This document shows positions 3,430 to 44,535 of a DNA stretch of 64,000 bases, in pieces. The position numbers and the translations under genes are program-made. The notes below the pieces were generated by a model. It saw only the letters and a list, made by a program, of their open reading frames with translations, did not search any database and was not told where the DNA came from. Each line of letters begins with the position of its first letter. Position 1 is the stretch's first letter. Source of the stretch: a virus; the IMG/VR virus record IMGVR_UViG_3300020472_000012, positions 32,001 through 96,000 of that record. One strand, given 5' to 3'.

Positions 3430-3438
3430 GAGGAATAA

Positions 3439-3970: not shown

Positions 3971-3983
3971 AGGAAAGAGAGAC

Positions 3984-4634: not shown

Positions 4635-4638
4635 AATT

Positions 4639-4646
4639 TATAAATA
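4639..4646 (+). promoter_or_regulatory. T4-type late promoter TATAAATA
   Basis: Exact consensus upstream of scaffold/capsid genes. Confidence 0.85.
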
Positions 4647-4714
4647 CTACACAGAGAAACAATTATGTTCTCGTTTTTTAATTAGTAAGTATTTAAAACT
4701 AGGGGATAAGTAAA

Positions 4715-6040
4715 ATGTCTGAACAAGATATACAAAACCAAGAAACCGAAGTAGTCGAAGGTGCAGCTGTACCACAGGCGAAAGGTGCCGTTACCCCAGA
4801 CCCAGATGCTCCTAAGAAAGCAGTTGCTGCAGTTGATAAAGCCGGAGATGCCACTAAACCTTCTAAAAAAAGGAAAGGTGACCAAGAAGGTGGAGACAAA
4901 GCAGCTCCTAAGCAGGAAGAGGTAGAGTCTGATAGTGATGAAGTCGTTGTAGAAGATTTGACCAAAATGGAAGCTCTTCGTGCAATTATTGAAGAACTAA
5001 AGGGTTTGGAAAAAGACGAAATTAAATCCCTCTATGCTGAAATGGTTAAGAAAGAAGAAGATGAAGATGATGAAGACGAAGATGACGATGAAGAAGTCGA
5101 TGAGTCTACAAAAGCTGACCTTCTTAGAAAAATTGCTGAACATTTCAAGACAGAGGACGAAGATACTGTAAAAGAAGCATACGCTGCTATTACAGAGAAG
5201 AAAGAAGAAGTCGAAGATGACGAAGACGATTCAGAAGATGACGATGAGTCAGATGATGATGAAGATGAAGTCAAAGAGAAAACTAAGAAAGAAGAAGTAG
5301 AAATTGATATGTCTGATGACATTGAAGCTTTAATTTCTGGTGAAGACGAACTTTCAGAAGAATTCCAAAACAAAGCAAAAGTAGTTTTTGAAGCTGCTGT
5401 ATCTGCAAAAGTAAACCAAATTCGAGAAGAACTTGAAAAAGAATCTCTTGAAAGAGTTGTTGAAACAACTGGTGAAATCAAAGAAGAACTTGTTACTAAA
5501 GTTGATTCTTTCCTTTCATATGTTGCAGAAGAGTGGGTTAAAGATAACGAACTTGCAATCGAGAGAGGACTTAAGTCCGAACTCACAGAGAATTTTATAA
5601 CAGGTCTTAAAGACTTGTTTGAAGACCATTATGTTGAAGTTCCATCTGACAAACTAGATGTTGTCGATGAACTTGCTGGTAAAGTTGAAGAAGTTGAACA
5701 GAGACTTAACGAAGAAGTTTCTAAGAACATTGATTTAACTGCTTCCAATGAAGAACTAGTTAAAGACAAAGTGGTTCGAGAAGTTTCACAAGACTTAACT
5801 GAACAAGAAGTTGAGAAACTTGGTAAATTAATCGAAGACATAGATTTTAACGATGAGTTTGAATCAAATGTCAAAACCATCAAAGAGTCTTATTTTGACA
5901 ACTCTGCTAAAGAGACTGTCCAATTAGACGAACAGATGGTGGCAAGTGAAGGAGAAGAAAGTGGTTCGACTGACGACAAAATCGTTGACCCAACCATGGC
6001 TGCCTACTCTGCCGCAATAAAGAGGGTTAACCCACTATAA
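4715..6040 (+). CDS. gp22: Prohead core scaffold protein
   Basis: Highly acidic coiled coil; FEAAV, YVAEEWVKDNELAIERG; synteny. Confidence 0.93.
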   Translation: MSEQDIQNQETEVVEGAAVPQAKGAVTPDPDAPKKAVAAVDKAGDATKPSKKRKGDQEGGDKAAPKQEEVESDSDEVVVEDLTKMEALRAIIEELKGLEKDEIKSLYAEMVKKEEDEDDEDEDDDEEVDESTKADLLRKIAEHFKTEDEDTVKEAYAAITEKKEEVEDDEDDSEDDDESDDDEDEVKEKTKKEEVEIDMSDDIEALISGEDELSEEFQNKAKVVFEAAVSAKVNQIREELEKESLERVVETTGEIKEELVTKVDSFLSYVAEEWVKDNELAIERGLKSELTENFITGLKDLFEDHYVEVPSDKLDVVDELAGKVEEVEQRLNEEVSKNIDLTASNEELVKDKVVREVSQDLTEQEVEKLGKLIEDIDFNDEFESNVKTIKESYFDNSAKETVQLDEQMVASEGEESGSTDDKIVDPTMAAYSAAIKRVNPL

Positions 6041-6102
6041 TGAATGGTGGTGTTAATTTAATATTAACTTTTCATTAGTAAAAATTTAAGGGGAAAACTA
6101 TT

Positions 6103-7410
6103 ATGTTTATGTCAGAATCTTTACAAGAAAAGTGGCAGCCGGTATTAGAACATCCTGATTTGCCTAAAATCGATGATTCATACAAAAGAGCAGTCACTTC
6201 TGTAGTTCTTGAAAACCAAGAAAGAGCCTTAAACGAAGACAGAGGAATGATATCTGAAGCATCACCAGTTAACGCTGCTGTTGGTTCCGATGGGTCTGGT
6301 ATCTCAAACTGGGATCCAATCCTAATTTCTTTGGTTCGTAGGTCTCTACCTAACTTGGTTGCATACGACATTTGTGGTGTCCAACCTATGACTGGCCCAA
6401 CTGGGTTAGTATTTGCAATGAAAGCTCGTTATAACGATAACACTTCAAGGTTAGCAATGACCGAGGCGTTATTTGACGAAGCAGATTCAGATTTCGCTGG
6501 TGCGGGAACACAAGCTGGAACAGACCCATTTGGGGATGCAGCCACTTATGCTTCTGGTACTGGTATGACTACTGCAGCAGGGGAGGCATTGGGTGACAGT
6601 GCTTCAAATCCTTTTGCTAGTATGGCTTTCACAATTGAGAAAGCAACTGTAACTGCAAAAACTAGAGCTCTCAAAGCAGAATACACTATTGAACTTGCAC
6701 AAGACCTTAAAGCAATTCATGGTCTTGACGCAGAAACAGAACTTGCAAACATATTGTCTGCTGAAATCCTTGCGGAAATCAACAGAGAAGTTGTAAGAAC
6801 TGTTAATGTTCAAGCTAAAACTGGTGCTCAGTCTGGTACTGCTAATGCTGGTCGATTTGACCTAGATGTTGATTCATCTGGTCGTTGGTCAGTTGAGAAA
6901 TTTAAAGGCATGCTCTTCCATGTAGAAAGAGAAGCTAACACAATTGCAAGAGAATCAAGACGAGGAAAGGGTAACTTTATCCTTTGTTCTTCTGATGTAG
7001 CATCTGCACTAGCTATGGCTGGTGTACTTGACTACGCTCCTGCTCTCTCAACTAACCTAAATGTTGACGATGCTGGTAATACTTTTGCTGGTGTTCTTAA
7101 TGGTAAGTATAAAGTCTATATTGACCCATACTACACATTAGACCCAGTAAGTGGTCACAGTAACGAAGGTTACATGACTGTTGGATATAGAGGTTCCAAT
7201 CCTTATGATGCTGGTATATTCTACTGCCCATATGTTCCATTACAAATGGTTCGTGCGGTTGGTGAAAATACTTTCCAACCAAAAATTGGTTTCAAAACTC
7301 GATATGGAATGATTTCAAATCCATTCGTAGGTTCGTCTCCAAGTGATGGTCTTGCATCAGCAGGAAGTAACTTCTACTACAGAAAGGTCGAAGTAGAAAA
7401 TATTCTATAA
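6103..7410 (+). CDS. gp23: Major capsid protein
   Basis: GVQPMTGPTGL, ELAQDLKAIHGLDAETEL, FQPKIGFKTRYG. Confidence 0.99.
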   Translation: MFMSESLQEKWQPVLEHPDLPKIDDSYKRAVTSVVLENQERALNEDRGMISEASPVNAAVGSDGSGISNWDPILISLVRRSLPNLVAYDICGVQPMTGPTGLVFAMKARYNDNTSRLAMTEALFDEADSDFAGAGTQAGTDPFGDAATYASGTGMTTAAGEALGDSASNPFASMAFTIEKATVTAKTRALKAEYTIELAQDLKAIHGLDAETELANILSAEILAEINREVVRTVNVQAKTGAQSGTANAGRFDLDVDSSGRWSVEKFKGMLFHVEREANTIARESRRGKGNFILCSSDVASALAMAGVLDYAPALSTNLNVDDAGNTFAGVLNGKYKVYIDPYYTLDPVSGHSNEGYMTVGYRGSNPYDAGIFYCPYVPLQMVRAVGENTFQPKIGFKTRYGMISNPFVGSSPSDGLASAGSNFYYRKVEVENIL

Positions 7411-7433
7411 GAACTTTTCAAGTCAGAACGATT

Positions 7434-7460
7434 AAAGGGTCTCTTCGGAGACCCTTTTTT
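7434..7460 (+). terminator. Rho-independent terminator with C(UUCG)G tetraloop
   Basis: AAAGGGTCTC-TTCG-GAGACCCTTT then T run, after gp23. Confidence 0.93.
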
Positions 7461-7482
7461 TATATACCTGCTTTTTTAATCT

Positions 7483-7490
7483 TATAAATA
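7483..7490 (+). promoter_or_regulatory. T4-type late promoter TATAAATA
   Basis: Exact consensus 9 nt before ATG at 7500. Confidence 0.8.
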
Positions 7491-7499
7491 ATAGTGTAT

Positions 7500-7667
7500 A
7501 TGATGAAATGGTTAGATAAAATAATAACAAAAAGAAGTGGTGGGAAGACCGAAGAAGATATCTACAAAGCTAGATGGGTCTGGTATCATACAATACTTGC
7601 ATTCGAGATATTCTTAACGAATATATTACTCATTGCAATCCTACTTGCCATTTTATTAAAGGGGTAA
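7500..7667 (+). CDS. Small membrane protein, 55 aa (not in ORF track)
   Basis: MMKWLDKI...ILAFEIFLTNILLIAILLAILLKG; C-terminal TM helix; follows late promoter. Confidence 0.7.
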   Translation: MMKWLDKIITKRSGGKTEEDIYKARWVWYHTILAFEIFLTNILLIAILLAILLKG

Positions 7668-7673
7668 TTAATT

Positions 7674-7979
7674 ATGATTAAAGAAATAATCAAAGGTGCC
7701 GTGTACATGATAAGTGGTGCAGTTATACTTGCAGCTATTTGGAGTGCAGACACTATGAGTGAAAGGAAAGCTCATTTTGATTCTAAGATGCAAGGTAAAC
7801 AGAATATTAGAATCAATATTGGAGACGATGTTAAACATGGTTTACTGCAACACCATTTACATGGTGAAGATGGTAAGATAATCTGGCAGAAACAAGCCGA
7901 CACTATATCTCTACCAGTAATTCCACAAGAAGAAATCGAAGTGGAAGTACCAGAAGCTATAGAAGAAGTTAGAGGATAA
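7674..7979 (+). CDS. Hypothetical protein with N-terminal TM/signal segment
   Basis: Hydrophobic N-terminus; tightly packed in operon. Confidence 0.7.
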
Positions 7980-7981
7980 TA

Positions 7982-8206
7982 ATGTCACAAGTAAAAGATT
8001 TGGTCATTAAGATAGTAAATGACCACCTTGATGTAGATTCTAAACTAGAATCTAACTTTATGGATGATTTAGGTTCAGATTCATTAGATACTGTTGAACT
8101 AGTTTTACAGTTTGAAGAAGAATTTGAAATAGATATTCCAGATGAAGACGCAGAGAATTTAACAACTGTAGGTGCTGTTGTTGAATATATAGAAAACAAT
8201 GGATAG
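7982..8206 (+). CDS. acpP: Acyl carrier protein
   Basis: [13 protein letters not shown] phosphopantetheine motif, [14 protein letters not shown]; 74 aa, acidic. Confidence 0.95.
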
Positions 8207-8333
8207 GGACACATACAAATATGTGGAATCTAAAATTCCTTTATCAGAACATAAGTATAGGGGGTGGTTTTATCACTATCCAACTAAGAAGTTCTATAGA
8301 TGGAATGATATCCCATATGAGGGAAGTAAATGA
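8199..8333 (+). CDS. Small hypothetical protein, 44 aa (not in ORF track)
   Basis: MDRDTYKY...[19 protein letters not shown]; overlaps ACP end and has ATGA overlap with gp3. Confidence 0.6.
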
Positions 8334-8908
8334 CAACTAGAAGTATAGATGTAGCAACTTGGGCTGGTGATTTACCAGATAATCTTTCATACTTATCACC
8401 TACACAATTTGAGTTGGTAATTGCAAAGTTACCCTCAACAAAGTATTTTGCAACTGGTGCGAATATACCATCAGTTAGTTTAAATGCACTTGCACAGTCA
8501 ACTAGGTTAGGAATACAACCACAGATGCCTGGCGATAGAGTTGCATTTTCAGAGTTCAATGTTAATTTCATCGTAGATGAAAACCTTGAAAACTGGAGAG
8601 AACTATACACTTGGATGATTCAAATAGCTCCTGGCTATGATTCCAATGAGTATAGAAAATTAATAGGGGCAAACGATAGAGTTGGACAAAAGTTCGATGA
8701 TTCTGGAGACCCTAAGAAAATGTATTCCGATATGACAATGGTAGTAACAACTGCAGCCAATAATCCTAATCGTTATGTTAGAATATATGATTGTTTTCCG
8801 ACAACACTTGCAGAGGTTACTATGGATACAACAACAACAGACAATCCTTATGTAGTTTGTAATGCTACTTTTGCATTTACCTACTTTGAGATTGCTACAA
8901 CATCTTAA
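8330..8908 (+). CDS. gp3: Tail completion / sheath stabiliser protein
   Basis: YLSPTQF, ANIPSVSL, FIVDENLENW, FPTTL; position between gp23 and uvsY. Confidence 0.85.
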   Translation: MTTRSIDVATWAGDLPDNLSYLSPTQFELVIAKLPSTKYFATGANIPSVSLNALAQSTRLGIQPQMPGDRVAFSEFNVNFIVDENLENWRELYTWMIQIAPGYDSNEYRKLIGANDRVGQKFDDSGDPKKMYSDMTMVVTTAANNPNRYVRIYDCFPTTLAEVTMDTTTTDNPYVVCNATFAFTYFEIATTS

Positions 8909-8916
8909 TATGAACA

Positions 8917-9030
8917 GTGAAAGAATATTGGAAAGAAGTGTGGGAGTTTTGCAAAGCTGAACCAGTTTGGGCAGCGGTCTTTTTCTTTTGTGGATATCTA
9001 ATAGGTATAGTGATAACTAACCCTTTTTAG
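8917..9030 (+). CDS. Small membrane protein, 37 aa, GTG start (not in ORF track)
   Basis: MKEYWKEVWEFCKAEPVWAAVFFFCGYLIGIVITNPF fills intergenic gap. Confidence 0.5.
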   Translation: MKEYWKEVWEFCKAEPVWAAVFFFCGYLIGIVITNPF

Positions 9031-9031
9031 G

Positions 9032-9059
9032 TAGACAAATTACCATTTTGTGGTATAAT
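9032..9059 (+). promoter_or_regulatory. Sigma70-type promoter (16-bp spacer, extended -10), leaderless
   Basis: TAGACA-N16-TATAAT with TGn; ATG 6 nt downstream. Confidence 0.75.
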
Positions 9060-9065
9060 TATAGT

Positions 9066-9512
9066 ATGAATTTAGAAAAAATCCGAGAAGAGTGGGCAAA
9101 AGATAGTGTCATCGATAAGATAGACATGGATAAAGTCTCGCTTGAAACTCCAAAATTACACTCAAAATACTTAGATGAACTCTCATCTAAAAGACTCAAC
9201 TATAAAAAATACGAAGTAGAATATAACATTCTTCTCAAGAAGAAGTGGTTGTGGTATACTGATAAGTTATCTAAAGAAGAAATAGATGAACTGGGATGGT
9301 CTTATGACCCATTTGAAGGACATAAGGTCTTAAAGGCAGATTATAACTACTATTTCAATGCAGATAAAGACTTAACAGACCTTAAACTTAAGTTGGAATA
9401 TCTTACTGAGTGTATTGATGTTTTGAAAGACATACTAAATATCCTTACATGGAGACATCAATCTATTAAAAATGCAATTGACTGGTTAAAATTCACTAAC
9501 CCAGCAGGATAA
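9066..9512 (+). CDS. uvsY: Recombination mediator UvsY
   Basis: W..DSVID, PKLHSKYL, IKNAIDWLKF; start moved from GTG 9048 to ATG 9066. Confidence 0.92.
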   Translation: MNLEKIREEWAKDSVIDKIDMDKVSLETPKLHSKYLDELSSKRLNYKKYEVEYNILLKKKWLWYTDKLSKEEIDELGWSYDPFEGHKVLKADYNYYFNADKDLTDLKLKLEYLTECIDVLKDILNILTWRHQSIKNAIDWLKFTNPAG

Positions 9513-9515
9513 ATT

Positions 9516-10178
9516 ATGCCATCTTTTTTACGAGAACCCTTAGTTATTATAGAAGACGCACTTTCAGTTGATGTGTGTGAAGAACTAAAGTATATTGGAA
9601 CCCATTCAGAAAACCAGTATGGACAAATTGGTGATGGTGGTGAACATGTTGATATACGAAAATCTGGGGTTTCGTGGTTACCTAGAGATATGAAAATAGG
9701 TGATGGTAGGGAACTACAGAAAGATATCATTTGGCCGATGATAGTTAAAACTAATGAAGAATGGTTTGGGTTTGATTTAAACTACCATGAAGCAAGTCAA
9801 TTCACTACTTACAAAGCACCAGATGAACACTATAACTGGCATGCAGATGGTGGGCCAGACTTATATCAGAATATAAGTGAAGAAGAACCACTATTTACAA
9901 ACGATGAACTTCAAGTGGGTACATATCGTAAACTATCATATGTTATACAATTATGTCATCCAGATGAATATGATGGTGGGAAATTCCAATATATAGACCC
10001 TACAAGGAATATTGCACAGACAGATTGGGGTTTAATTGAAGAGACGATACCATTTAGAGCAATGGAACAAGGAAGTGCAATCTTTTTTAGTTCTATATTA
10101 CATCATAGAGTTATGCCTGTTACCAAAGGTATAAGACATTCACTAGTAGGTTGGGTATGCGGGCCACCATTCAAATAG
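9516..10178 (+). CDS. 2OG-Fe(II) oxygenase (PKHD-type)
   Basis: YNWHAD, RKLSYVIQL, YDGG, HRVMPVTKGIRHSLVGW. Confidence 0.92.
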   Translation: MPSFLREPLVIIEDALSVDVCEELKYIGTHSENQYGQIGDGGEHVDIRKSGVSWLPRDMKIGDGRELQKDIIWPMIVKTNEEWFGFDLNYHEASQFTTYKAPDEHYNWHADGGPDLYQNISEEEPLFTNDELQVGTYRKLSYVIQLCHPDEYDGGKFQYIDPTRNIAQTDWGLIEETIPFRAMEQGSAIFFSSILHHRVMPVTKGIRHSLVGWVCGPPFK

Positions 10179-11578
10179 ACAAAATTGATGAAACTCATAT
10201 AAGAGTTACATCAGACGAGTCAGTTCAAAGAGAAATTTCAGAATATTTTACATTTCCAGTGCCGGGGGCAAAGTTTATGCCTTCTGTTAGGAACAGGTAT
10301 TGGGATGGTAATATTCGTTTATACAATAATGAGAAACTATATACAGGATTGTATTATGCATTATATCAATTTGCTAAGGATAGGGAATATGACATTGAAG
10401 GATATAATTGGGAAACTGATGTTCAAGAAGCGGGATTTATTGAAAACTTACAACTACCCTTCGAGGTTCGAGATTATCAAAGTGAAGCTATATCGCATGC
10501 TATTAAGTACAGACGCTCTCTTTTGGTGTCACCTACTGCTAGCGGTAAGTCTCTTATTATCTATTGCATCGCACGACATTTCTTAAAAGTTCACAAGAAA
10601 CCAGTATTAGTTATAGTACCCACAACCTCTCTGGTAGAACAGATGGCAACTGATTTCGAGGGATATGGGTATAATAAACCTATCGATAAAATGTATGGTG
10701 GTAATAAGGTAGGTGATACTGAGATAGTAGTTACTACTTGGCAGACCCTTAGCAGGATGCCTAGGGCCTTCTACAGCCATTTTGGATGTGTGTTTGGTGA
10801 TGAGGCACATTTATTCAAAGCAAAGGTACTTACAGGTATCTTAGAGAAGATGAAAGACATCACACATAGATATGGAACAACAGGTACATTAGATGATTCA
10901 CAAACACATAAACTCGTTCTTGAAGGACTATTCGGGCCCACTCGTTATGTTACTACTTCTAGTGACCTTATCGATGATGGAGTTCTTGCAGACTTAAATG
11001 TCCAATGTTTGGTACTTCAATACCCAAAAACTACATCCAAAGAGGTAGTTCAGATGGATTATCAACGAGAAATGGAATTTTTGGTAGATAATAACAAAAG
11101 AAATCGTTTTATTCGTAATTTAGTACAAGATAGGGGTGGCAATACCCTTATTCTCTTCCAATATGTAGAAAAACATGGAAAGGGGTTATATAATGACTTC
11201 CTACAACTAGGTGGTAACTTATTCTTCATATATGGTAAGACTGACACTATTGCACGAGAAGAGGCCAGAGCAATAGTAGAGAAGTCAGATAATGCCATTA
11301 TTATTGCATCATATGGTACTTTCTCTACTGGAATTAATATAGAAAACCTAGATAATATAGTATTTGCAAGTCCTTCTAAGTCAAAAATAAGGATTTTACA
11401 GTCAATTGGAAGAGTTTTAAGGAAAGGAAAGACTGGAAAAGCAACTGTATATGATATTGCAGACGATTTATCTTTTGGAAAAAAAGAAAATTATACTCTA
11501 AAACACTTTAAAGAAAGGATAAATACTTACAATAGGGAGAAATTCCCATACACAATACACAACATTAAATTCAAATGA
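10157..11578 (+). CDS. uvsW: SF2 RNA-DNA/DNA helicase UvsW
   Basis: SPTASGKS, DEAH, QSIGRVLR. Confidence 0.96.
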   Translation: MRATIQIDKIDETHIRVTSDESVQREISEYFTFPVPGAKFMPSVRNRYWDGNIRLYNNEKLYTGLYYALYQFAKDREYDIEGYNWETDVQEAGFIENLQLPFEVRDYQSEAISHAIKYRRSLLVSPTASGKSLIIYCIARHFLKVHKKPVLVIVPTTSLVEQMATDFEGYGYNKPIDKMYGGNKVGDTEIVVTTWQTLSRMPRAFYSHFGCVFGDEAHLFKAKVLTGILEKMKDITHRYGTTGTLDDSQTHKLVLEGLFGPTRYVTTSSDLIDDGVLADLNVQCLVLQYPKTTSKEVVQMDYQREMEFLVDNNKRNRFIRNLVQDRGGNTLILFQYVEKHGKGLYNDFLQLGGNLFFIYGKTDTIAREEARAIVEKSDNAIIIASYGTFSTGINIENLDNIVFASPSKSKIRILQSIGRVLRKGKTGKATVYDIADDLSFGKKENYTLKHFKERINTYNREKFPYTIHNIKFK

Positions 11579-12045
11579 ATTACAAATATCTAAGATTAAA
11601 CACTGGTGAACACATCATTTCTGTTGTGGAACCAATTAAAGCAAACCAAGAGGTGAAGTTAATCATGCCTATGATTGCAGATATTGTTCCTTCCATGTTA
11701 GGACAAGGAACAATAATGAAACTATCACCTTTAATACCATATACAAGTGAAGACCACATTATAATGAGACTGACAGACATATCCTACTTTAGTAGTATTA
11801 CACAACAATTTGTGGATTTTTATAAGAAAGGGGTAGATGACTGGGTACAGATACGAGACCATGTGGGTCTACAGGTAAGAACACCAAAGGAAGAACTTGC
11901 AGAAGGAAAGGCATTTCGCAGACTTATGGAACAACAAGTCAAACAATATGTCGATAACGAACTAGGGGATGTCCAGTTTGATATAGAAGAAGAACTGCAA
12001 GATATGATAATAGATGATGAAGACAATAAAAGGACTATTCATTAA
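11575..12045 (+). CDS. Conserved T4-like hypothetical protein (Sm-like N-terminus)
   Basis: YLRLNTGEHIIS; usual position between uvsW and gp55. Confidence 0.7.
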   Translation: MNYKYLRLNTGEHIISVVEPIKANQEVKLIMPMIADIVPSMLGQGTIMKLSPLIPYTSEDHIIMRLTDISYFSSITQQFVDFYKKGVDDWVQIRDHVGLQVRTPKEELAEGKAFRRLMEQQVKQYVDNELGDVQFDIEEELQDMIIDDEDNKRTIH

Positions 12046-12088
12046 CATCCCTTTATAGTAATATATCCTTCCCTTTGGGACACAATTT

Positions 12089-12117
12089 ATTTTATCATCG
12101 AACTTAAAAGCTGTCAA
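12089..12117 (-). promoter_or_regulatory. Antisense sigma70-type promoter, back-to-back with gp55 promoter
   Basis: Minus strand TTGACA-N17-TAAAAT with TGn extension; no ORF downstream. Confidence 0.6.
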
Positions 12118-12150
12118 GTCTTTTTTTCTACTATTAGATGAAAATAACTA

Positions 12151-12178
12151 TTGACAGATATGCATTATGGAGTATAAT
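12151..12178 (+). promoter_or_regulatory. Sigma70-type promoter for gp55, leaderless
   Basis: TTGACA-N16-TATAAT; ATG 8 nt downstream. Confidence 0.8.
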
Positions 12179-12186
12179 AGATACAT

Positions 12187-12741
12187 ATGGCACAAAAAGC
12201 AAAACCAGAACACTATGTAAATAACAAAGAGTTCACAGCAGCGATTACAGAACATAACCTTGCAGTTAGGAAAGCAGTCAAAGATGGAAAGGAACCACCT
12301 AGAGTTTCCGAGTATATTGGTGAGTGCATTTATAAAATTGCAACAAGGTTATCGACTAAACCAAATTTTATCAACTATTCTTATAGGGATGAAATGATTT
12401 GTGATGGAATTGAAAACTGTTTACAATATATAAACAACTTCAACCCAGAGAAATCTCAAAATGCGTTCGCATATATCACACAAATTATTTACTATGCATT
12501 CCTAAGAAGAATCCAGAAAGAAAAGAAACAGTCTGCAATTAAACAGAAGGCAATTATGAATTCTGGAATATTAACAGACATGGTAGACACTATGGATGGT
12601 GACACCAATCAGTATTCAAATTCGTATGTTGAGTTTTTACAAGACAATATGAATGAAATAACCTATAAACCTAGAGGTAAAAAGAAAAAAACCCAATCTA
12701 ATAAAGGCGTTGAAAACTTTTATCAGTCCACAAAAAAATAA
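12187..12741 (+). CDS. gp55: Late transcription sigma factor
   Basis: HYVNNKEF, PNFINYSYRDEMICDGIENC, AFAYITQIIYYAFLRRI. Confidence 0.97.
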   Translation: MAQKAKPEHYVNNKEFTAAITEHNLAVRKAVKDGKEPPRVSEYIGECIYKIATRLSTKPNFINYSYRDEMICDGIENCLQYINNFNPEKSQNAFAYITQIIYYAFLRRIQKEKKQSAIKQKAIMNSGILTDMVDTMDGDTNQYSNSYVEFLQDNMNEITYKPRGKKKKTQSNKGVENFYQSTKK

Positions 12742-13802
12742 TGAAGTTTGCTATTCTTAACGACACACATTGTGGTGTTCGTAACGATAACATACAATTT
12801 CACGAACTACAAAGAAAGTTTTATGAAGATGTATTTTTCCCTTATCTGTTAGAACACGACATCAAACATATAGTTCATCTTGGTGATTACTTTGACAAGA
12901 GAACTGGTATTAATTTCTTATCATTACAGAAAAACAAAGAACACTTTGTTGACCATCTTGATGAGTATGGTATTACTATGGATTTAATTCTTGGTAATCA
13001 TGACTTGTATTATAAGAATACATCCGAAGTCAATTCACCACAAGCACTATTAAACCATCCTAATATAAAAATCTATGGTGATGTAATTACTAAAGATTAT
13101 GATGGGTGTAAAGTATGTTTAGTGCCTTGGATTCATAGAACAAACATCGATGACACAGTAGAACACCTAGACACAACCAATGCTACTATTGCAATGGGTC
13201 ATCTAGAAATCGAAGGTGCAATGATGATGCCAGGCTATTATTCAACTCATGGTTTGAGTCTGGATACCTTCAAAAGATTTGATAAAGTTTATAGTGGACA
13301 TTTCCACACCAAATCAGAAATGAACAACCTAAGATATTTGGGTTCTCAAATGGAATTCACTTGGTCAGATTATGGAGATAAAAAATATTTTCATATATTT
13401 GATACAGAAACAAGAGAGGTACTTCCAGTTGCAAACCCTATTAGGATGTTTGAAAAAGTATTCTATGATGATTCCAAAGAAACAATGGAGTCAATTCAAG
13501 AAAAAGATTTCTCACATTTAAAAGATATGTTTGTCAAAGTGGTTGTTATGAGTAAAGACCAACCATATTGGTTTGACATGTTTATTGAAAAGATTACAAA
13601 AGCAGATGTAATCGACTTTAAAGTTGTAGAAGACCACGGCAACCTCGATATGATGGATGACGATGATGCACTATCAGATGCAGAAGATACACTTACAATT
13701 TTAACTAAACATATAGAAGGGATGGAAATCTCTGGAGAAAAATCTAAACTAGAACATTTGATGAGGTCTCTTTATTCAGAGGCTCTGGATGTTAATATTT
13801 GA
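12741..13802 (+). CDS. gp47: Recombination endonuclease, Mre11/SbcD-like
   Basis: DTHCG, GDYFD, GNHD, SGHFH. Confidence 0.96.
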   Translation: MKFAILNDTHCGVRNDNIQFHELQRKFYEDVFFPYLLEHDIKHIVHLGDYFDKRTGINFLSLQKNKEHFVDHLDEYGITMDLILGNHDLYYKNTSEVNSPQALLNHPNIKIYGDVITKDYDGCKVCLVPWIHRTNIDDTVEHLDTTNATIAMGHLEIEGAMMMPGYYSTHGLSLDTFKRFDKVYSGHFHTKSEMNNLRYLGSQMEFTWSDYGDKKYFHIFDTETREVLPVANPIRMFEKVFYDDSKETMESIQEKDFSHLKDMFVKVVVMSKDQPYWFDMFIEKITKADVIDFKVVEDHGNLDMMDDDDALSDAEDTLTILTKHIEGMEISGEKSKLEHLMRSLYSEALDVNI

Positions 13803-37357: not shown

Positions 37358-37365
37358 TATAAATA
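37358..37365 (+). promoter_or_regulatory. T4-type late promoter TATAAATA heading the curli-like operon
   Basis: Exact consensus, AGGAG RBS downstream. Confidence 0.8.
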
Positions 37366-37390
37366 CTAATGATATATTGAAGGAGAGATT

Positions 37391-37705
37391 ATGTCTTTTA
37401 TTGAATTTGTGACCGATGTGGGCGTCCCCATTGGGGGTGCTGTAGTCATGGGATTTTTTATCTTCATGGTACTTAAACAAATATTTGAGGGTATCATAGA
37501 TGATATAAGGACTCTAACTGGATTTTGTAAGATGTTAGAGGACAGAGCAAGAGTTGGTTGTAATGAACTGGTGAAGATAGACCTATTGGTAAGTAGTGCA
37601 TTAGATTTAACACCACCAGTCGATAGAGTGGCTAGAGCAGAAAATTTCAGAACTGATGACAAAGGTAATCCACAAAATGTTAAACTTGATGTGAGGAGAG
37701 ACTAA
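37391..37705 (+). CDS. TM + coiled-coil protein
   Basis: DVGVPIGGAVVMGFFIF TM; paralogous to next gene. Confidence 0.8.
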   Translation: MSFIEFVTDVGVPIGGAVVMGFFIFMVLKQIFEGIIDDIRTLTGFCKMLEDRARVGCNELVKIDLLVSSALDLTPPVDRVARAENFRTDDKGNPQNVKLDVRRD

Positions 37706-38016
37706 TGGAAACATTGGCAGATGCTATCTCACAATTTGGGTTCCCTGTTGTTATGGCTGCGGGAATGGGTTACTTTATCTATTTTATCTGGAGATTTGTA
37801 ACAGATAAGATAGAACCAGAACTTGAAAAGATGCATTTTGCATTAATCAAGTGCATCGATGCAAATAGAATGTTAGATAATGATATGATTCGTCTTCAAC
37901 AAAAAGTAAATGTTGTACTTGAGTACAGAGAAAGGCAAGATGTTCTTGCAGACGCAGAAGAAAAAGAAGCACTTGCAGAGGTAAAGAAGAATGAAAGAGG
38001 GAAAAGTAAGAAGTAG
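37705..38016 (+). CDS. TM + coiled-coil protein
   Basis: QFGFPVVMAAGMGYFIYFIW TM; RMLDNDMIRL. Confidence 0.8.
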   Translation: METLADAISQFGFPVVMAAGMGYFIYFIWRFVTDKIEPELEKMHFALIKCIDANRMLDNDMIRLQQKVNVVLEYRERQDVLADAEEKEALAEVKKNERGKSKK

Positions 38017-38521
38017 AATAGAATTAATAACCTTACTGGGCATATTTGTAATATCATTATTTGGATTGACACCAAAAGCATATGGTGATGAACTTACACA
38101 AAAGTTTAAAAATCCTAGCTTTAGTGGGATAGGAACATCGGCACACTATCTTACAATTGACAATCAAGAAAAAGCAAGAAGAGATAAGATAAAAGAAGAC
38201 ATCGAGGCTGCACTTCTGGCTGCTGAAAGAGCAGAAGATAATACAGTCCTTGCAAAATTCATCAGAAATTTAGAAAGCAGAATTTATTCACAATTAAGTA
38301 AACAGTTGGTAGAGTCATTATTCAGTAATGAAGATGGTGCATCATTTGGTAGTTTCACTTTAGAAGATTCGGTTATAACATACGAAAGAAGAACATGTAT
38401 CGTAGGTGTTGATGCTGGTTGTACAGAAGGTCAAGAAATAATTGTTCTAAACATAACTAATTCTGATGGTTCAACAACAACTATCTCAATTCCTATTGGA
38501 GTAGGAAACTGGGGTGGATAA
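37991..38521 (+). CDS. csgF: Curli assembly protein CsgF-like
   Basis: Signal peptide then ELTQKFKNPSFSG; F..NLESRIYSQLS. Confidence 0.85.
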   Translation: MKEGKVRSRIELITLLGIFVISLFGLTPKAYGDELTQKFKNPSFSGIGTSAHYLTIDNQEKARRDKIKEDIEAALLAAERAEDNTVLAKFIRNLESRIYSQLSKQLVESLFSNEDGASFGSFTLEDSVITYERRTCIVGVDAGCTEGQEIIVLNITNSDGSTTTISIPIGVGNWGG

Positions 38522-39443
38522 TCAAAGAAAAAATCTTTTAATAGCATTATCTGGACTTTTATTAATGTCTGGATGTGCATCTATGGTATCTCCTGGCGGG
38601 TTGTCAGACAGTAATTGTATAGAATTTATCGAATGTGTTGAAGAACCAGAAATAGTGGAACTTCCTACACATGAACAATTATTAAGTCTACCACCAGCAG
38701 ATAAGAAACCAATAGTTGCAGTATACTCTTTCCCAGATAAGACTGGACAAAGAAAACAAAAAGATTCTGCAGCCTTATTCTCCACAGCAGTAACTCAAGG
38801 TGGTGAGACAATGTTAATAGATGCATTGAAAACTGCTGGTAATGGAACATGGTTTAGGGTTGTAGAAAGAGTTGGGGTTGACCACTTAACTCGTGAAAGG
38901 CAAATAGTAAGAACAACAAGAGAGCAATACAATGAAGACAAGACTGGTCTTGCACCATTGTTATTTGCTGGAATGATTTTAGAGGGTGGTATCATAGGCT
39001 ATGACACCAATCTCGAAACTGGCGGTTGGGGTGCGAGGACATTAGGCATCGGCAGTCAGCAGCAATATCGAAGGGATATAGTTACCATTTCGTTAAGAGC
39101 GGTATCTGTATTAACTGGAGAGATATTACTCAATGTCCAGACTTCAAAAACCATTTTATCTGTCGCAGGTGGTTTCGATGTCTTTAAATTTATTGATATG
39201 GATACTCAACTTGTAGAAGTTGAGAATGGAATGACAGAAAATGAATCAATAACTCGTTCAGTTAGAAGTGCCATTGAGAAAGCAGTTTTAGAACTAATTT
39301 ATCAAGGGGATGAAAAGGGTTATTGGAAAATAAATTGGCCTACAAATAAGATAATCGAAGGCAAAGTTGAAGAGTTAGTAGACGATGCAGAGATTATTGT
39401 AGTAGGTGAAGAAGAGGAAAATACAAATGAAAATGATAAATAA
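38514..39443 (+). CDS. csgG: Curli secretion channel CsgG (lipoprotein)
   Basis: Lipobox LMSGC, VAVYSFPDKTGQRK, FSTAVTQG, WFRVVER. Confidence 0.93.
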   Translation: MDNQRKNLLIALSGLLLMSGCASMVSPGGLSDSNCIEFIECVEEPEIVELPTHEQLLSLPPADKKPIVAVYSFPDKTGQRKQKDSAALFSTAVTQGGETMLIDALKTAGNGTWFRVVERVGVDHLTRERQIVRTTREQYNEDKTGLAPLLFAGMILEGGIIGYDTNLETGGWGARTLGIGSQQQYRRDIVTISLRAVSVLTGEILLNVQTSKTILSVAGGFDVFKFIDMDTQLVEVENGMTENESITRSVRSAIEKAVLELIYQGDEKGYWKINWPTNKIIEGKVEELVDDAEIIVVGEEEENTNENDK

Positions 39444-40164
39444 ATTTTTATTATCTTTTACATTATTATTTAGTACATCTGTGGTTATGGGTGCAGTATC
39501 CTCATCTGACAATGAAATCTCATTAGAGCAAACTGGTGATACACTAACATTAACCATTGACCAAATTGGTTATGGCAATAAGTTGTGTGGTACTTTAGGT
39601 TCTAATGTTTGTGCAAGTGATTGGACTATTGCTGGCACCACGCTGACGATTAACATCGACCAGATTGGTAACAGCAACAAAGTGATTGGTAACATCGACT
39701 TAGATACATCAGATATAGATTTAACATTTACTGGTGATACTAATAGTTGGACTTGGGATATAGGTGAAAGCGGAAGTTCAGATGACTCAGATTTGTTAGT
39801 TGACTTTACAGGTTCATCAAACACTGTTGATTTTAAACAGGGTTATAGTGCAGCTGCTGAAAGATTGGATTTCGATTTTGATGTTATTGGAGATTCTAAT
39901 GTATTCGATATTGATATTGATGCAGATGATATGACATGGGATGTAGATATTACTGGAGACAGTAATAATGTAGTAACTACAATTTCTGATGGTTCAGACC
40001 ATGAATTGAAGTTAGACCACACTGGAGATGGTGGAGACATTGATATAGTTATGTCTTCTGGAACATGTCCACAAGGAGTAAGTTCATGTTATTCAACCAT
40101 AGATTTGGATATTACAAGTGATAATGCAACGATTACAATTAATCAAAAAGATACTGGGGATTAA
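39427..40164 (+). CDS. Secreted curlin-like repeat protein
   Basis: Signal peptide; repeats IDQIGYGN, IDQIGNSN, FTGDTN, FTGSSN, VIGDSN, ITGDSN. Confidence 0.78.
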   Translation: MKMINKFLLSFTLLFSTSVVMGAVSSSDNEISLEQTGDTLTLTIDQIGYGNKLCGTLGSNVCASDWTIAGTTLTINIDQIGNSNKVIGNIDLDTSDIDLTFTGDTNSWTWDIGESGSSDDSDLLVDFTGSSNTVDFKQGYSAAAERLDFDFDVIGDSNVFDIDIDADDMTWDVDITGDSNNVVTTISDGSDHELKLDHTGDGGDIDIVMSSGTCPQGVSSCYSTIDLDITSDNATITINQKDTGD

Positions 40165-41266
40165 TCTCCTACTCTTTAGTTTAGTATCGTATGCTGACAG
40201 TATTGGGGACATTACTGAACATAAGGGTAGTGCGGGATTAACCAGACAATCTGGGGAGTCCTTACCTACCGATGTGGGGATTGACATTATGTCCTTAGAC
40301 CATATAGTTACTGCTAATGGTCGAATGAAAATCCAATTTGTAGATGACACAAAACTTTCATTGACAGAACAGTCTGAGGTTACAATAGACGAATACTATT
40401 TTGACCCAGACCCATCTAAGAGTAAGATGGCAATGAGTTTTGTATCTGGTACTGCAAGGTTTGCTACTGGTAAACTAGGACTTGTTCCTAGAGAGAATAT
40501 AATAATTCAAACACCAACTGCGACCATTGGTATTAGAGGCACCGATTTCACTACAAGCGTAGATGAACTGGGAAGAAGCCTTGTAATATTGCTACCAGAA
40601 ACAGAATGTACTATTGATGGAGATTGTTCTCCATCTGGTGAAATAACAGTTACGAATGATGGTGGGACTGTAACTCTATCCGAAGCATACCAAGCAACAA
40701 TGGTATCATCGTTTGACCAGAGTCCAGTTCAACCTGTAACTTTAGAAAATATAAATGTCAATATGATTGACAATATGTTCATCGTCTCACCACCAGAAAA
40801 GATTGTAGAAGCGGTTGAGGATGAACAAGGGGAAGCTGATAATACAGACCCAGCAAGTATATTGGATTTTACTGATTTAGATGTAAATGAGTTAGATGAA
40901 GATAAACTTAAAGAAGAAGATATGGAGTTCACAGAGCTCGATATGGATTTATTAAATGTTGACTTTCTTCAAGATTTATTAACTACGATTGAAGAAGTAG
41001 ATGTTTTAAAAAAGAGAACTGGTGCAGATGACACTGGTAATATTGTAGGAACAGTATTAGGTTTTGATAAAGATACTCAGTACAATACTATCATTGATAA
41101 GGGTGCTGGAACAATATGGTTTTATAGAGAAGTAAATGGAATCATATCAGTTAAAGTACCTATTAGTGCCAATTTAACATTGGAGTCAGAAAATGAAGGG
41201 AAGAGGAATCTTATTACTGTTAACGATGGTGAGTCTATCGTTATCATCATTCGTCAGGGCGGGTGA
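40124..41266 (+). CDS. Periplasmic FecR-domain protein
   Basis: Signal peptide, IQFVDDT.L.L.EQS, GTARF, TPTATIGIRGT. Confidence 0.88.
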   Translation: MQRLQLIKKILGINLLLFSLVSYADSIGDITEHKGSAGLTRQSGESLPTDVGIDIMSLDHIVTANGRMKIQFVDDTKLSLTEQSEVTIDEYYFDPDPSKSKMAMSFVSGTARFATGKLGLVPRENIIIQTPTATIGIRGTDFTTSVDELGRSLVILLPETECTIDGDCSPSGEITVTNDGGTVTLSEAYQATMVSSFDQSPVQPVTLENINVNMIDNMFIVSPPEKIVEAVEDEQGEADNTDPASILDFTDLDVNELDEDKLKEEDMEFTELDMDLLNVDFLQDLLTTIEEVDVLKKRTGADDTGNIVGTVLGFDKDTQYNTIIDKGAGTIWFYREVNGIISVKVPISANLTLESENEGKRNLITVNDGESIVIIIRQGG

Positions 41267-42002
41267 TGAACACAATCACATACATATAGACCAAGTACAA
41301 AGTGGAGATAACTTTGAACTAGGTATTGACCAAATTGGTTATGAGAACTTAATTAAGTTCTCTTTTAACCATGATGATAATACAGTAAACATACTACAAT
41401 CTGGAAACAACATGTATATTGGATATACAGATGCATGGGGTTCTGGTTATAGTTGGGGTGGAGATTTAGATGGATTGAGAAATGATGTTGATATTCGTCA
41501 AAAGTGTTCACTTACATCCTGTAATGAAACAGATTTTCAATTTCATATCTGGGGTGATGACAACGAAGTTGTCTTTGGTCAAGGATATGAAAACAATAAT
41601 AGTTTAACACCAAATTGGAATTACGATGGTAATGAGCCTGGTGGAAACTTTGTCAGACTAGACATACATGGTGATGATAACAAATTCAAAGGAAGTCAGA
41701 AACAAGATTCAAGTTCAGTTAGTCATACTGCAACAGTAAACATATATGCAGACAATAATGATGTATTTTTAAAGCAAATGCAAAATGGAAACAAAACTTT
41801 CACGATGACTATCTATAATGACTACAATGAAGTTGCAGTTACACAAAAAAACAATGGGGCTCATACTGCAACTATTACATTAAGAGGAACCCAACCAACA
41901 GATTTAAACTTATCACAATCTGGAAACACAACACAAACTTATTCATTAAACCAGAATTGTGTAACAGCAGGTGGATGTTCAGTCACAGTAAATCAGAACT
42001 AA
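41193..42002 (+). CDS. Second secreted curlin-like repeat protein
   Basis: Signal peptide; IDQIGYEN, LQSGNN, WGDDNE, HGDDNK, QNGNK, QSGN repeats; C-terminal CxxxxxC. Confidence 0.78.
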   Translation: MKGRGILLLLTMVSLSLSSFVRAGDEHNHIHIDQVQSGDNFELGIDQIGYENLIKFSFNHDDNTVNILQSGNNMYIGYTDAWGSGYSWGGDLDGLRNDVDIRQKCSLTSCNETDFQFHIWGDDNEVVFGQGYENNNSLTPNWNYDGNEPGGNFVRLDIHGDDNKFKGSQKQDSSSVSHTATVNIYADNNDVFLKQMQNGNKTFTMTIYNDYNEVAVTQKNNGAHTATITLRGTQPTDLNLSQSGNTTQTYSLNQNCVTAGGCSVTVNQN

Positions 42003-42016
42003 ACAATATATGAACA

Positions 42017-42226
42017 GTGAAAGACAAGACCGAAAAATATACGACCCTAGTAAGAATGCCGTACAAGGATGCTATTCGTATAATCCTACGCACAATTGAT
42101 TATCATAATCATATGATGGTAGTAGACAAAGACAATTATTACTTTCACGAAAAACAGATGAGACGATTAAAAGTATGGATGATAGATATGAAAGATTTCA
42201 TCCACGAAGAAGAAAATAATGGGTAA
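42017..42226 (+). CDS. Hypothetical protein
   Basis: GTG-start ORF overlapping cyclase start. Confidence 0.6.
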   Translation: MKDKTEKYTTLVRMPYKDAIRIILRTIDYHNHMMVVDKDNYYFHEKQMRRLKVWMIDMKDFIHEEENNG

Positions 42227-44114
42227 ATTTTTAACATCCACTTGGATGGTTGGATTAGTTCTAATTGGACTAATAGGGATAAGAACACTAGACCCAGAAC
42301 CAGTAGAAAGGATTAGGAACATTCAGTTCGATTCTTTCCTAACATCATACGAACCTACCATTTCAGATAACATTATCCTACTAGATGTAGGAGAAAACTC
42401 TCTAGAAGAATTTGGCCAATGGCCGTTTCCCAGACAACAGTTTGCCCAAATGATTTCTGATTTAAGGAATGCAAATGCTGGAATGATAGGTATGACTGTT
42501 ATGTTTCCAGAACCAGATAGGTTTGGTGGAGACCAAATACTTGCATCTTGGATAAATGGTAATGGAATAATATTAGGACAAACATCTTCACCTAAAGGTA
42601 GAAGTGATGTTGCACCATTTGTAGGAACTGCAACATTAGGTGAAGGTAGTGCATATGATTTTGCATATGAATACAAGGGTATTGTAACTAATCTACCAGA
42701 GTTTGAATCTGCATCTTGGGGTGTAGGTATGATGAACTCATCACCAGAAGTGGATGGTATTACCAGAAGAGTTCCATTAGTTACTCAAGTATCTGGTCAA
42801 CTATATCCAAGTTTCCCAATAGAAGTAGTTCGTGCAAATGCAGATAAGAAATCCTACACTATGAAAGTAGAAACTACAGGTATAGAGAACTTTAGAATAC
42901 CACCATACGAACCAATAGTAACAGATTATGCTGGAAGCATCTGGTTAGATTGGTCAAAAGATTTTATTCGATATGAATATGGGGAGACTCTTCCGAATCT
43001 TCAAGGGAAGACAGTGATTGTTGGGGTGACAGCAGAGGGCATTGTTCCCATTGTTTCGACTCCGAAGGGTTCAGTTTATCCACACGAAATTCAGGCTTCT
43101 GCGATTGAGACAATAATGGGTGGGGTTTCCATTTCTCGTCCAAATTGGGGTTCCCTTCTGGAAATAAGTTTAATTCTAATTGCTTCTCTGATGATGATGT
43201 TGTCTTTTGGTCGTCTTGGTTTCGCATTAACCACTCTCTTCTCTTTGACTGCTGTCTCTGGAGTTGTTTATTCCTCATTCTACTTCTGGAATTCATCGAT
43301 GTTCCTTATAGATTTTACATTTCCCATTATAACATTGATACTCATATTTAGTCAATTAAGTTTTAATAACTTCTATAAACAGTTTAAATTAAGACAACAA
43401 ATTAAAGGACAGTTTGGTACTTACCTATCACCAGATATGGTTGATATGTTAGTTAAAGACCCATCATTGATGAGACTAGGTGGTGATAGGAAAGAAATGA
43501 CCTTCTTGTTCGCAGATATTGTAGGGTTTACTCCAATAAGTGAAAAATATATGCAAAAAGATGACCCAGAAGGGCTGGTAGAACTTATAAATATGTTCTT
43601 AGATAGGTTAACTAAAATTATCCTTAAGAATGGCGGAACAGTCGATAAATATATGGGCGACTGTATAATGGCCTTCTGGAATGCTCCTTTACCATGTGAA
43701 AACCATGCAGAGATGGCAGTTAGGACTGCAATTGAGATGGAATTAGTATGTGAGGAGTTAAACCAAGAGTTACAAGAAAAAGGATTAGATTTACCACTAG
43801 TTAAAATAGGCACTGGAGTAAATACAGGGCCTTGTATAGTGGGGAATATGGGAAGTGAGTCTCGATTTGATTATTCTGTTGTTGGAGATGCTGTTAACTT
43901 GGGTGCAAGACTTGAAGTACAAACTAGAGAGTATGATACACCTATCCTACTATCTGAATATACTTATATGCAGACAGAAGGTATTTCATGCAAAGATTTG
44001 GGTGAAATAAAAGTTAAGGGTAAAGATGAACCTGTAACCATATATGCACCATTGTTTGATGCAAAAAGTGGTAATAGAAAAGAAATTAGGAAATTATATA
44101 AAGATGGCATATAG
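42219..44114 (+). CDS. CHASE2-domain class III adenylate cyclase
   Basis: GQWPFPR, DGITRRVP (CHASE2), 3 TM, FADIVGFT, DKYMGDC, DYSVVGDAVNLGARLE. Confidence 0.94.
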   Translation: MGKFLTSTWMVGLVLIGLIGIRTLDPEPVERIRNIQFDSFLTSYEPTISDNIILLDVGENSLEEFGQWPFPRQQFAQMISDLRNANAGMIGMTVMFPEPDRFGGDQILASWINGNGIILGQTSSPKGRSDVAPFVGTATLGEGSAYDFAYEYKGIVTNLPEFESASWGVGMMNSSPEVDGITRRVPLVTQVSGQLYPSFPIEVVRANADKKSYTMKVETTGIENFRIPPYEPIVTDYAGSIWLDWSKDFIRYEYGETLPNLQGKTVIVGVTAEGIVPIVSTPKGSVYPHEIQASAIETIMGGVSISRPNWGSLLEISLILIASLMMMLSFGRLGFALTTLFSLTAVSGVVYSSFYFWNSSMFLIDFTFPIITLILIFSQLSFNNFYKQFKLRQQIKGQFGTYLSPDMVDMLVKDPSLMRLGGDRKEMTFLFADIVGFTPISEKYMQKDDPEGLVELINMFLDRLTKIILKNGGTVDKYMGDCIMAFWNAPLPCENHAEMAVRTAIEMELVCEELNQELQEKGLDLPLVKIGTGVNTGPCIVGNMGSESRFDYSVVGDAVNLGARLEVQTREYDTPILLSEYTYMQTEGISCKDLGEIKVKGKDEPVTIYAPLFDAKSGNRKEIRKLYKDGI

Positions 44115-44535
44115 TAAAAAAGTAGTAGATAGATTCAATAATGTTTTAAACAATCCTCAAAAACATTCAGTTGGAAGGTTTGACCCAACAGACCCTAATG
44201 TTGCAACTGGAATGGTTGGTGCTCCAGCATGTGGAGATGTAATGAAACTAGACCTAAAACTAGATATTGATGGGTTAATAGAAGATGTCAAATTTAAAAC
44301 ATATGGGTGTGGAAGTGCAATTGCATCATCTAGTCTATTTGTTGATATGTTAATAGGTAAAACTATTGAACAGGCTAAACTCATTAAAGATAAAGAGATT
44401 GCAGAGATATTAGAATTGCCACCAATTAAACTACATTGTAGTGTACTTGCAGAGGACTGTATTAGACAAGCAGTGGAACACTGGGAAGAGAAGTCTGCAC
44501 ATAGAAAACACAATGAACTAGGTGGACATGCATAA
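44104..44535 (+). CDS. iscU: Fe-S scaffold IscU
   Basis: GAPACGD, KTYGCGSAIAS, LPPIKLHC; start MAYSKKV. Confidence 0.96.
   Translation: MAYSKKVVDRFNNVLNNPQKHSVGRFDPTDPNVATGMVGAPACGDVMKLDLKLDIDGLIEDVKFKTYGCGSAIASSSLFVDMLIGKTIEQAKLIKDKEIAEILELPPIKLHCSVLAEDCIRQAVEHWEEKSAHRKHNELGGHA

Follow-up and report, generated by a model that had tools for sequence, protein, structure and literature searches.

Type VIII (curli) secretion systems (T8SS) have been described in marine phages, and in podo- and myo-pelagiphages the viral T8SS region encodes CsgF, CsgG, CsgA/B-like repeats, a FecR-domain protein and an adenylate cyclase (Wittmers et al. 2022, PMC9599517). The same study reported that one or two 'histidine kinases' precede the viral T8SS genes, that T8SS, FecR and cyclase co-occur in pelagiphages, as seen also in GOV2.0, and that metatranscripts of the region are detected. 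An alphaproteobacterial origin was assigned to it, and the block was found to make up ~0.1% of assembled viral proteins and to be present at all 65 GOV2.0 stations. Two further reports discuss csgF/G and never mention the cyclase and FecR genes (Zaragoza-Solas 2020, PMC7029224; Buchholz 2022, PMC9004378), and the phages were said to lack csgA/B (Buchholz 2022, PMC9004378). The hosts of cultured carriers encode no curli components (PMC9599517; PMC9004378). Here we describe a copy of this block in a 64,000-nt stretch (the window; positions 32,001 to 96,000) of the IMG/VR viral record IMGVR_UViG_3300020472_000012.

The source record has 114 kb, is ~63% complete and has a GC content of ~35%, with almost every gene on the + strand. 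Nine open reading frames (ORFs), co-directional, tightly packed and abutting or overlapping, occupy positions 37391–44114 (+) of the window, and no convincing internal terminator was found among them. Their order, namely two small membrane proteins, CsgF, CsgG, a curlin, the FecR-domain protein, a second curlin and the cyclase, is shared with Pelagibacter phage HTVC008M (KC465899, 7181–13807) and Methylophilales phage Melnitz (MZ577097), and the same published region is also found in HTVC023P-type podophages. The window proteins are 28–49% identical to those of HTVC008M. Coming from a marine phage and showing this gene order, the window copy falls within the pelagiphage T8SS region of Wittmers et al. 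as one more intact and ordinary copy of the published viral curli block. An earlier note on this DNA, made from the letters alone, had listed these genes in this order, and all of them were confirmed at the positions given. Its statement that csgF and csgG are known in pelagimyophages agrees with the HTVC008M annotation and the published descriptions.

The block itself, its gene order and the co-occurrence of its parts were thus known beforehand (HTVC008M, Melnitz, Wittmers 2022). To this we add that the core block is carried by Caulobacterales chromosomes, that the premise of missing csgA/B is wrong, both curlin-like proteins being true curlins, that Lys and Ser form the specificity pair of the cyclase (IIIb type), and that pairs of FecR and CHASE2-cyclase genes are common in bacteria, often involving giant FecR-headed adhesins and a LapG-like protease. 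We favour, at somewhat better than even confidence, a reading in which fibre export is coupled to an envelope-to-cytoplasm cyclic AMP (cAMP) signal running from FecR to CHASE2. The block would then be a late-transcribed viral T8SS copy joining two units of alphaproteobacterial origin. The first would be a complete minimal curli-type secretion system, in which the CsgG lipoprotein and CsgF form an outer-membrane channel whose substrates, the two Sec-exported curlin-repeat proteins, would build a surface fibre on the infected cell. The second would be a sensor pair, in which the exported FecR-fold protein acts on an inner-membrane class IIIb cyclase through the periplasmic CHASE2 domain of the latter; cAMP would then inform the cytoplasm about the condition of the channel or fibre, or about something attached to it. 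Infected cells are predicted to gain in this way both a secretion system and a cAMP source; aggregation, a surface barrier and host reprogramming are candidate benefits for the phage.

Secretion channel and curlin-repeat substrates

The CsgF homolog (37991–38521, +) carries a signal peptide and matches PF10614 above the cut-off (4e-12) as well as phrog_35372. An N-terminal F-K-N-P-S-F-S-G motif is conserved in 51 family members, and a phmmer search with this protein against the PDB found nothing. CsgG, the outer-membrane lipoprotein channel (38514–39443, +; PF03783, 1e-50), aligns with E. coli CsgG over 224 residues (8e-44) and keeps the F-S-T-A-V segment of the constriction loop; Cys21, which follows a lipobox-like signal, is invariant in the family. 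No CsgE had been recognised in the earlier note, and a PF10627 search of the whole 114-kb record was likewise empty. Alphaproteobacterial curli operons lack CsgE as well (Wittmers et al. 2022, PMC9599517), so that the protein is no defining part of this subtype. With CsgG, CsgF and curlin-repeat subunits bearing signal peptides, the block encodes the parts of a minimal type VIII secretion system.

Two signal peptide-bearing proteins, which we call CurA (39406–40164, +; 252 aa, its true start being possibly a later ATG than 39406) and CurB (41193–42002, +; 269 aa), are the substrates in question. Sub-threshold Curlin_rpt matches in the 114-kb record lie inside the CurA and CurB genes only. The family profile of CurA matched nothing but curlin entries in the PDB (8C50 at 2.3e-6 and CsgA 8ENQ at 6e-4), and the same was observed with the CurB family profile (A8), which reached 8C50 at 2e-5. 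In the CurA family alignment (A6), invariant Q/G/N positions are spaced as Q-x-G-x-x-N repeats, and CurB shows Q-x-G/N repeats together with a conserved C-terminal Cys pair. The AF2 model of CurA (predicted local distance difference test score, pLDDT, 83.7) is all-beta and forms a beta-solenoid with Z of 12–16 to beta-helix proteins; a Foldseek search of the PDB with this model gave no match at E<=0.001, the beta-helix class being seen only by a wide VIA search. Conversely, hidden Markov models (HMMs) of the phage curlin families match the Curlin_rpt-bearing neighbours of bacterial csgFG, the CurB HMM down to 2e-13.

CurA and CurB are therefore true curlin-repeat beta-solenoids. As both are conserved, with signal peptides and curlin repeats, export of a fibre by the block is likely, as judged by sequence. 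The opinion of the earlier note that the system is 'less a biofilm fibre' is not borne out, and the published premise that csgA/B are missing fails for this block, since CurA and CurB are curlins.

The same evidence bears on proposals that an open CsgG/CsgF pore has been repurposed, either to trigger lysis or act like a pinholin (Buchholz 2022) or to take up nutrients, the other genes being accessory (PMC9004378; PMC7029224; PMC9599517). They fit with a CsgE gate that is not encoded. However, they build on the missing csgA/B, which is wrong for this block, and bacterial chromosomes retain the same core, as described below. An outer-membrane pore alone, moreover, cannot depolarise the inner membrane. 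Altogether, we consider a repurposed pore very improbable.

The FecR-domain protein and the CHASE2 cyclase

The earlier note had staked its reading on the co-conservation of FecR and cyclase with csgFG. We examined 62 IMG/VR loci encoding relatives of the window CsgG, a sample biased to relatives of this phage. The gene order of the block is constant across them: a FecR gene follows csgG in 50/50 loci with enough downstream DNA, and the cyclase gene is present in all 31 loci whose downstream DNA reaches far enough, on the same strand, ~3.3–5.1 kb downstream of the csgG start and adjacent to the FecR-domain gene region. Both genes are thus co-conserved with csgFG, and the viral loci (31/31) share with NsrA/CHASE2-type envelope sensors a FecR-domain gene beside a CHASE2 cyclase.

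The cyclase (42219–44114, +; 631 aa; phrog_35576, 1e-194) is composed of a transmembrane (TM) helix, a periplasmic CHASE2 domain (PF05226, 2e-36, over residues 15–325), three TM helices and a catalytic domain (PF00211, Guanylate_cyc, 2e-20). The CHASE2 domain thus lies between TM1 and the three-helix membrane block, as expected for a sensor of this type, and the hydrophobic stretches are visible in sequence and alignment. Among solved structures, P. aeruginosa CyaB (3R5G) is the closest (1.8e-38). The conserved catalytic residues comprise the metal-binding Asp433 and Asp481, the substrate-specifying Lys477 and Ser553, and Asn560 and Arg564 for the transition state. Alignment to CyaB 3R5G and Spirulina CyaC 1WC0 identified Lys477 and Ser553 as the specificity pair, Ser553 standing at their Thr position; Thr or Asp occupies this second position in a few relatives. 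Asp551 is a neighbouring conserved residue and not the specificity position, and the ATP-specifying Lys/Asp pair claimed in the earlier note is therefore wrong. Instead, Ser at the Thr position of CyaB and CyaC places the enzyme in the Lys/Thr-type IIIb. As judged by its sequence, it is a class IIIb adenylate cyclase with all features of the subclass and an intact catalytic set. Among more distant copies, the cyclase gene of L229/L218 (103-kb contig) is on the opposite strand, and the cyclases of the subclade formed by L062 and L229/L218 carry a ~60-residue C-terminal extension.

In the exported FecR-domain protein (40118–41266, +; PF04773, 1e-12), the signal peptide leads straight into the FecR fold (~27–210), followed by an acidic disordered linker (~214–307) and a small C-terminal beta domain (~308–380). 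The AF2 model has a pLDDT of 62 overall and ~80 within the FecR fold, which superposes on the cell-surface-signalling domain of PupR (6OVK; Z 14.1, root-mean-square deviation (rmsd) 2.6, 134 residues aligned). R140-G141-T142-D143-F144 are invariant or nearly so in the family. Of these, G141-T142 resembles the Gly191-Thr192 self-cleavage site of FoxR (PMC11637429), a likeness by motif and not by aligned position. Within the linker, residues ~262–295 hold a conserved short amphipathic acidic motif (E-F-T-E-L-D ... D-V-D-F-L-Q-D), weaker in distant relatives and possibly forming a helix on which a partner docks. An Atlas search with the C-terminal part gave no usable match, and hhalign of this domain against the CurA family found nothing, so that a curlin-like strand at its end is unsupported. 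Complex prediction with the periplasmic part of CHASE2 (26–312) and the FecR fold (27–232) returned a score of 0.00, which has no weight either way.

The periplasmic FecR domain is common to the phage protein and the anti-sigma factors FecR, FoxR and PupR. In contrast to these, the phage protein has neither a cytoplasmic anti-sigma domain nor a membrane anchor, and no ECF (extracytoplasmic function) sigma factor or TonB-dependent transducer was found in the block by Pfam, the rest of the genome not having been searched for them. This is relevant to the view that the block makes a plain curli fibre for aggregation ('sibling capture') or as a surface shield, FecR and cyclase regulating host or T8SS expression rather than sensing the channel (Zaragoza-Solas 2020; Wittmers 2022). 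The complete minimal T8SS with its substrates agrees with such a view, as do the published proposals (PMC7029224; PMC9599517). Nevertheless, a FecR protein lacking the cytoplasmic anti-sigma part and the TM anchor is ill suited to this regulation, a phage late-type promoter (see below) would drive the operon so that cAMP/CsgD-type control is not needed, and the Melnitz authors saw no clumping of cultures (PMC9004378). We leave this view a modest chance.

Suggestive, if middling, scores link the FecR protein to a second structure as well. Residues 26–123 of the FecR protein superpose on the anchoring (retention) domain of MpIBP, a Lap-type RTX adhesin (5IX9; Z 7.1, rmsd 2.0, 74/76 residues aligned, 26% identity), and 5IX9 is the sole PDB match of the FecR family profile below E 0.01 (E 0.007). 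No published link between FecR domains and RTX retention modules came up in a literature search. The FecR-type protein could be a retained T8SS passenger, a tether read by CHASE2, with cAMP reporting the state of the surface fibre. Below the CsgG channel, its FecR/retention-like head would be held back in the periplasm, while the acidic linker of ~90 residues would run through the pore and place the small C-terminal domain beside the curlin fibre outside the cell; CHASE2 would sense load on the tether, its loss or its self-cleavage at G141-T142. Unlike Lap-type adhesins, the block has no type I secretion genes and its pore is CsgG, not a TolC-like channel; no homolog of the LapG-like protease (Peptidase_C93) was found in any viral locus or in the window block. 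We regard the retained passenger as speculative, with a small chance of being correct. If true, the same logic would hold for the bacterial FecR-headed giant adhesins beside CHASE2 cyclases described below, and the orphan CHASE2 domain would gain a ligand.

Promoter-like motif, small membrane proteins and flanking genes

The motif TATAAATA, resembling T4-type late promoters, is located at 37358–37365 (+), 25 nt 5′ of the first ATG of the block. It occurs 11 times in the window against 7.6 expected, and 16/100 shuffles reach 11, which is not above chance. In 43/56 related viral loci, it precedes the first small gene by no more than 90 nt, often right after a hairpin and T-run. The promoter reading thus follows from the conserved position, and the window count lends it no support. 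Late expression of the block is suggested by the likeness to the T4 late-promoter consensus. At other sites, TATAAATA often ends just 5–10 nt before an ATG (window positions 1865, 36509 and 36999; related loci L005–L041), a spacing so short that, with a T4-like transcription start, the late mRNAs would have no leader or almost none.

The first two genes encode small membrane proteins of 104 aa (37391–37705, +) and 103 aa (37705–38016, +). Both match phrog_18771 (9e-19 and 3.5e-25, respectively) and, compared with one another by BLASTP (E 9e-6), they show 22% identity; the paralogy proposed in the earlier note is thereby supported. The first is the 'HK' of the viral T8SS region of Wittmers et al. 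2022 and consists of an acidic N-tip, one TM helix and a helical C-terminal part. An N-out/C-in membrane orientation is predicted for these proteins, which were found in phage versions of the block only: the genes lie upstream of csgF in 54/58 viral loci and are absent from the three bacterial copies described below. No Pfam family, annotated PHROG or kinase domain was found for them, and no match to a holin family in Pfam or PHROG. In the Atlas, the second protein has only unnamed viral clusters as relatives, the nearest named families, YvrJ (0.87) and Holin_BhlA (0.86), both being below the lead threshold. In L062, a 264-kb viral contig, the two small genes are found ~7 kb downstream of the block on the opposite strand.

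These proteins bear on the suggestion, made in the earlier note, that the block is mainly a trans-envelope sensor reporting superinfection or outside conditions to lysis timing, in analogy to T4 lysis inhibition; the small proteins would provide the tie to lysis. An operon behind a late-type promoter motif, small N-out/C-in membrane proteins restricted to phages and faintly resembling BhlA-type holins (the sub-threshold Atlas value given above), and the pairing of FecR with CHASE2 in bacteria would all suit it. On the other hand, both curlin-repeat substrates are conserved and intact, the small proteins match no holin family and in L062 are 7 kb away on the other strand, and in none of the examined loci is an endolysin or holin linked to the block. 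Furthermore, the core block stands in three bacterial chromosomes among housekeeping genes, lacking the small proteins and any lysis context. As no phage genes were detected within the ~7–10 kb examined on either side of these copies, a lysis-specific role is unlikely to be its basic function. What remains of the suggestion is the trans-envelope sensor, in line with the co-conservation of cyclase and FecR and with their pairing in bacteria; the diminished role of the fibre and the link to superinfection and lysis timing are unsupported. As a whole, we consider it distinctly unlikely.

Two features distinguish the window copy from HTVC008M and Melnitz. The first is an extra ORF of 69 aa (42017–42226, +) between the CurB and cyclase genes, overlapping the cyclase start by 8 nt. 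The product has no signal peptide, looks cytoplasmic and matches no family in Pfam or PHROG; tblastn found relatives only in the closest loci (L003, 84%; L008–L010 and L012, 50–53%). The second is the NifU/IscU-like Fe-S assembly gene (44044–44535), which lies directly after the cyclase gene, overlapping its end, instead of upstream of the block. The likely start of this ORF is an internal ATG near 44104. An IscA-like gene (PF01521; 37017–37346) flanks the block upstream. Both Fe-S genes are upstream in most relatives, pointing to a local rearrangement in this phage and L003.

Bacterial counterparts and known systems

We surveyed 80 bacterial csgG loci, taking those with GC above 0.5 as truly bacterial. 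One of these, L152 (Henriciella metagenome-assembled genome (MAG), 397-kb contig; block at 6466–12489), carries csgF, csgG, curlin(s), FecR and cyclase in phage order. The same core block order was found, via FecR, in L227 and L228 (Caulobacteraceae MAGs; ~7050–13106). None of the three has the two small membrane genes. Housekeeping genes, such as those for TonB-dependent receptors, methylmalonyl-CoA mutase and acyl-CoA dehydrogenase, flank the blocks, with no phage genes detected in the ~7–10 kb examined on each side, and block GC is just slightly below flank GC. Three Caulobacterales chromosomes thus carry the core block, which contradicts the published statement that bacterial T8SS operons have no FecR or cyclase. 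A recent phage insertion was rejected as the origin of these copies on account of the housekeeping flanks and the GC values. In L228, a calcineurin-like phosphoesterase gene upstream of csgF (5797–6657) could encode a cAMP phosphodiesterase.

In phylogenetic trees, cyclase and CsgG of L152, L227 and L228 group inside the viral clade (SH-aLRT 100 and 99, respectively) and are separated from ordinary bacterial homologs, among them the usual CsgG found in other Henriciella, Hyphomonas and Brevundimonas. As the trio nests at different places of the viral clade in the two trees, no direction of transfer is assigned. Low-GC contigs (0.32–0.42) with the phage-type block, in most cases including the small genes, were also found in MAGs of unrelated bacteria (L145–L151, L153–L155, L157, L160, L175, L218, L225, L226, L229 and L230), named as Saprospirales, Sphingobacteriales, Flavobacteriales, Pirellulales, Polynucleobacter, Rhodobacteraceae Water_Bin34, Planctomycetaceae TMED10, Luteolibacter and Bacteroidetes. 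These are most likely phage DNA mis-binned into bacterial genomes.

Pairing of FecR with CHASE2 is also found in bacteria outside the block. A FecR-domain gene lies within 10 kb of 27/80 closest bacterial CHASE2 cyclases (mostly Alphaproteobacteria), none of which (0/80) has csgG or csgF nearby, and a CHASE2 cyclase stands beside 15 of the 74 bacterial FecR homologs that are not part of the module. Two kinds of FecR partner were seen, namely short FecR-only proteins and heads of giant proteins encoded directly upstream of the cyclase, with cadherin-like, Big_9, laminin-G or RTX repeats. In L065 (Bradyrhizobium japonicum, 3165–12172), a LapG-like Peptidase_C93, a giant FecR-headed cadherin/Big_9/laminin-G adhesin-like protein and a CHASE2 cyclase are encoded side by side; with 15 more, 16/80 bacterial cyclase loci have a Peptidase_C93 homolog. 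This suggests that L065-type loci are a cAMP-wired counterpart of Lap-type adhesin control. Comparable systems have been described: the outer-membrane beta-barrel NsrA acts upstream of CHASE2 cyclases, and Campylobacterota have gene clusters in which CHASE2 cyclases accompany outer-membrane proteins with a FecR domain.

Given this pairing (27/80; 15/74), a FecR/CHASE2 sensor pair is a reasonable inference for the phage block. Several observations weigh against fibre export coupled to cAMP signalling. The bacterial pairing is one of gene neighbourhood only, and a single clade, Nitrobacteraceae, supplies many of the pairs, this phylogenetic clustering implying few independent events. No cNMP-binding (cyclic nucleotide-binding) protein is encoded in the incomplete 114-kb record. 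CurA and CurB have no PHROG family and no Pfam match at threshold, Curlin_rpt not being reached. Finally, the small membrane proteins are phage-specific additions which fibre and cAMP do not explain. Since the available 114 kb encodes no reader of cAMP, this would most likely be a host protein. If the coupling of FecR to CHASE2 holds, the block would provide a compact model for the activation of CHASE2 sensors and for the reporting of a surface fibre or adhesin to the cytoplasm.

Taken together, the block can be compared with two classes of known systems. Alphaproteobacterial curli operons have CsgF, CsgG and Curlin_rpt neighbours as in the phage, and no CsgC/D/E. Their ordinary CsgG, however, forms a clade separate from viral CsgG, and no phage-type FecR or cyclase is found next to csgFG in the GC>0.5 loci except L152. 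The second class comprises envelope sensors, namely S. meliloti NsrA with CyaD1/D2/K, the Campylobacterota clusters and the Bradyrhizobium FecR-headed adhesins. The bacterial FecR/CHASE2 pairs place an exported FecR-fold module beside a CHASE2 class III cyclase, as in the phage block. They differ from it in being free of curli genes and in their FecR proteins, which are short or head giant adhesins, whereas that of the phage has just a 70-residue C-terminal domain after its acidic linker.

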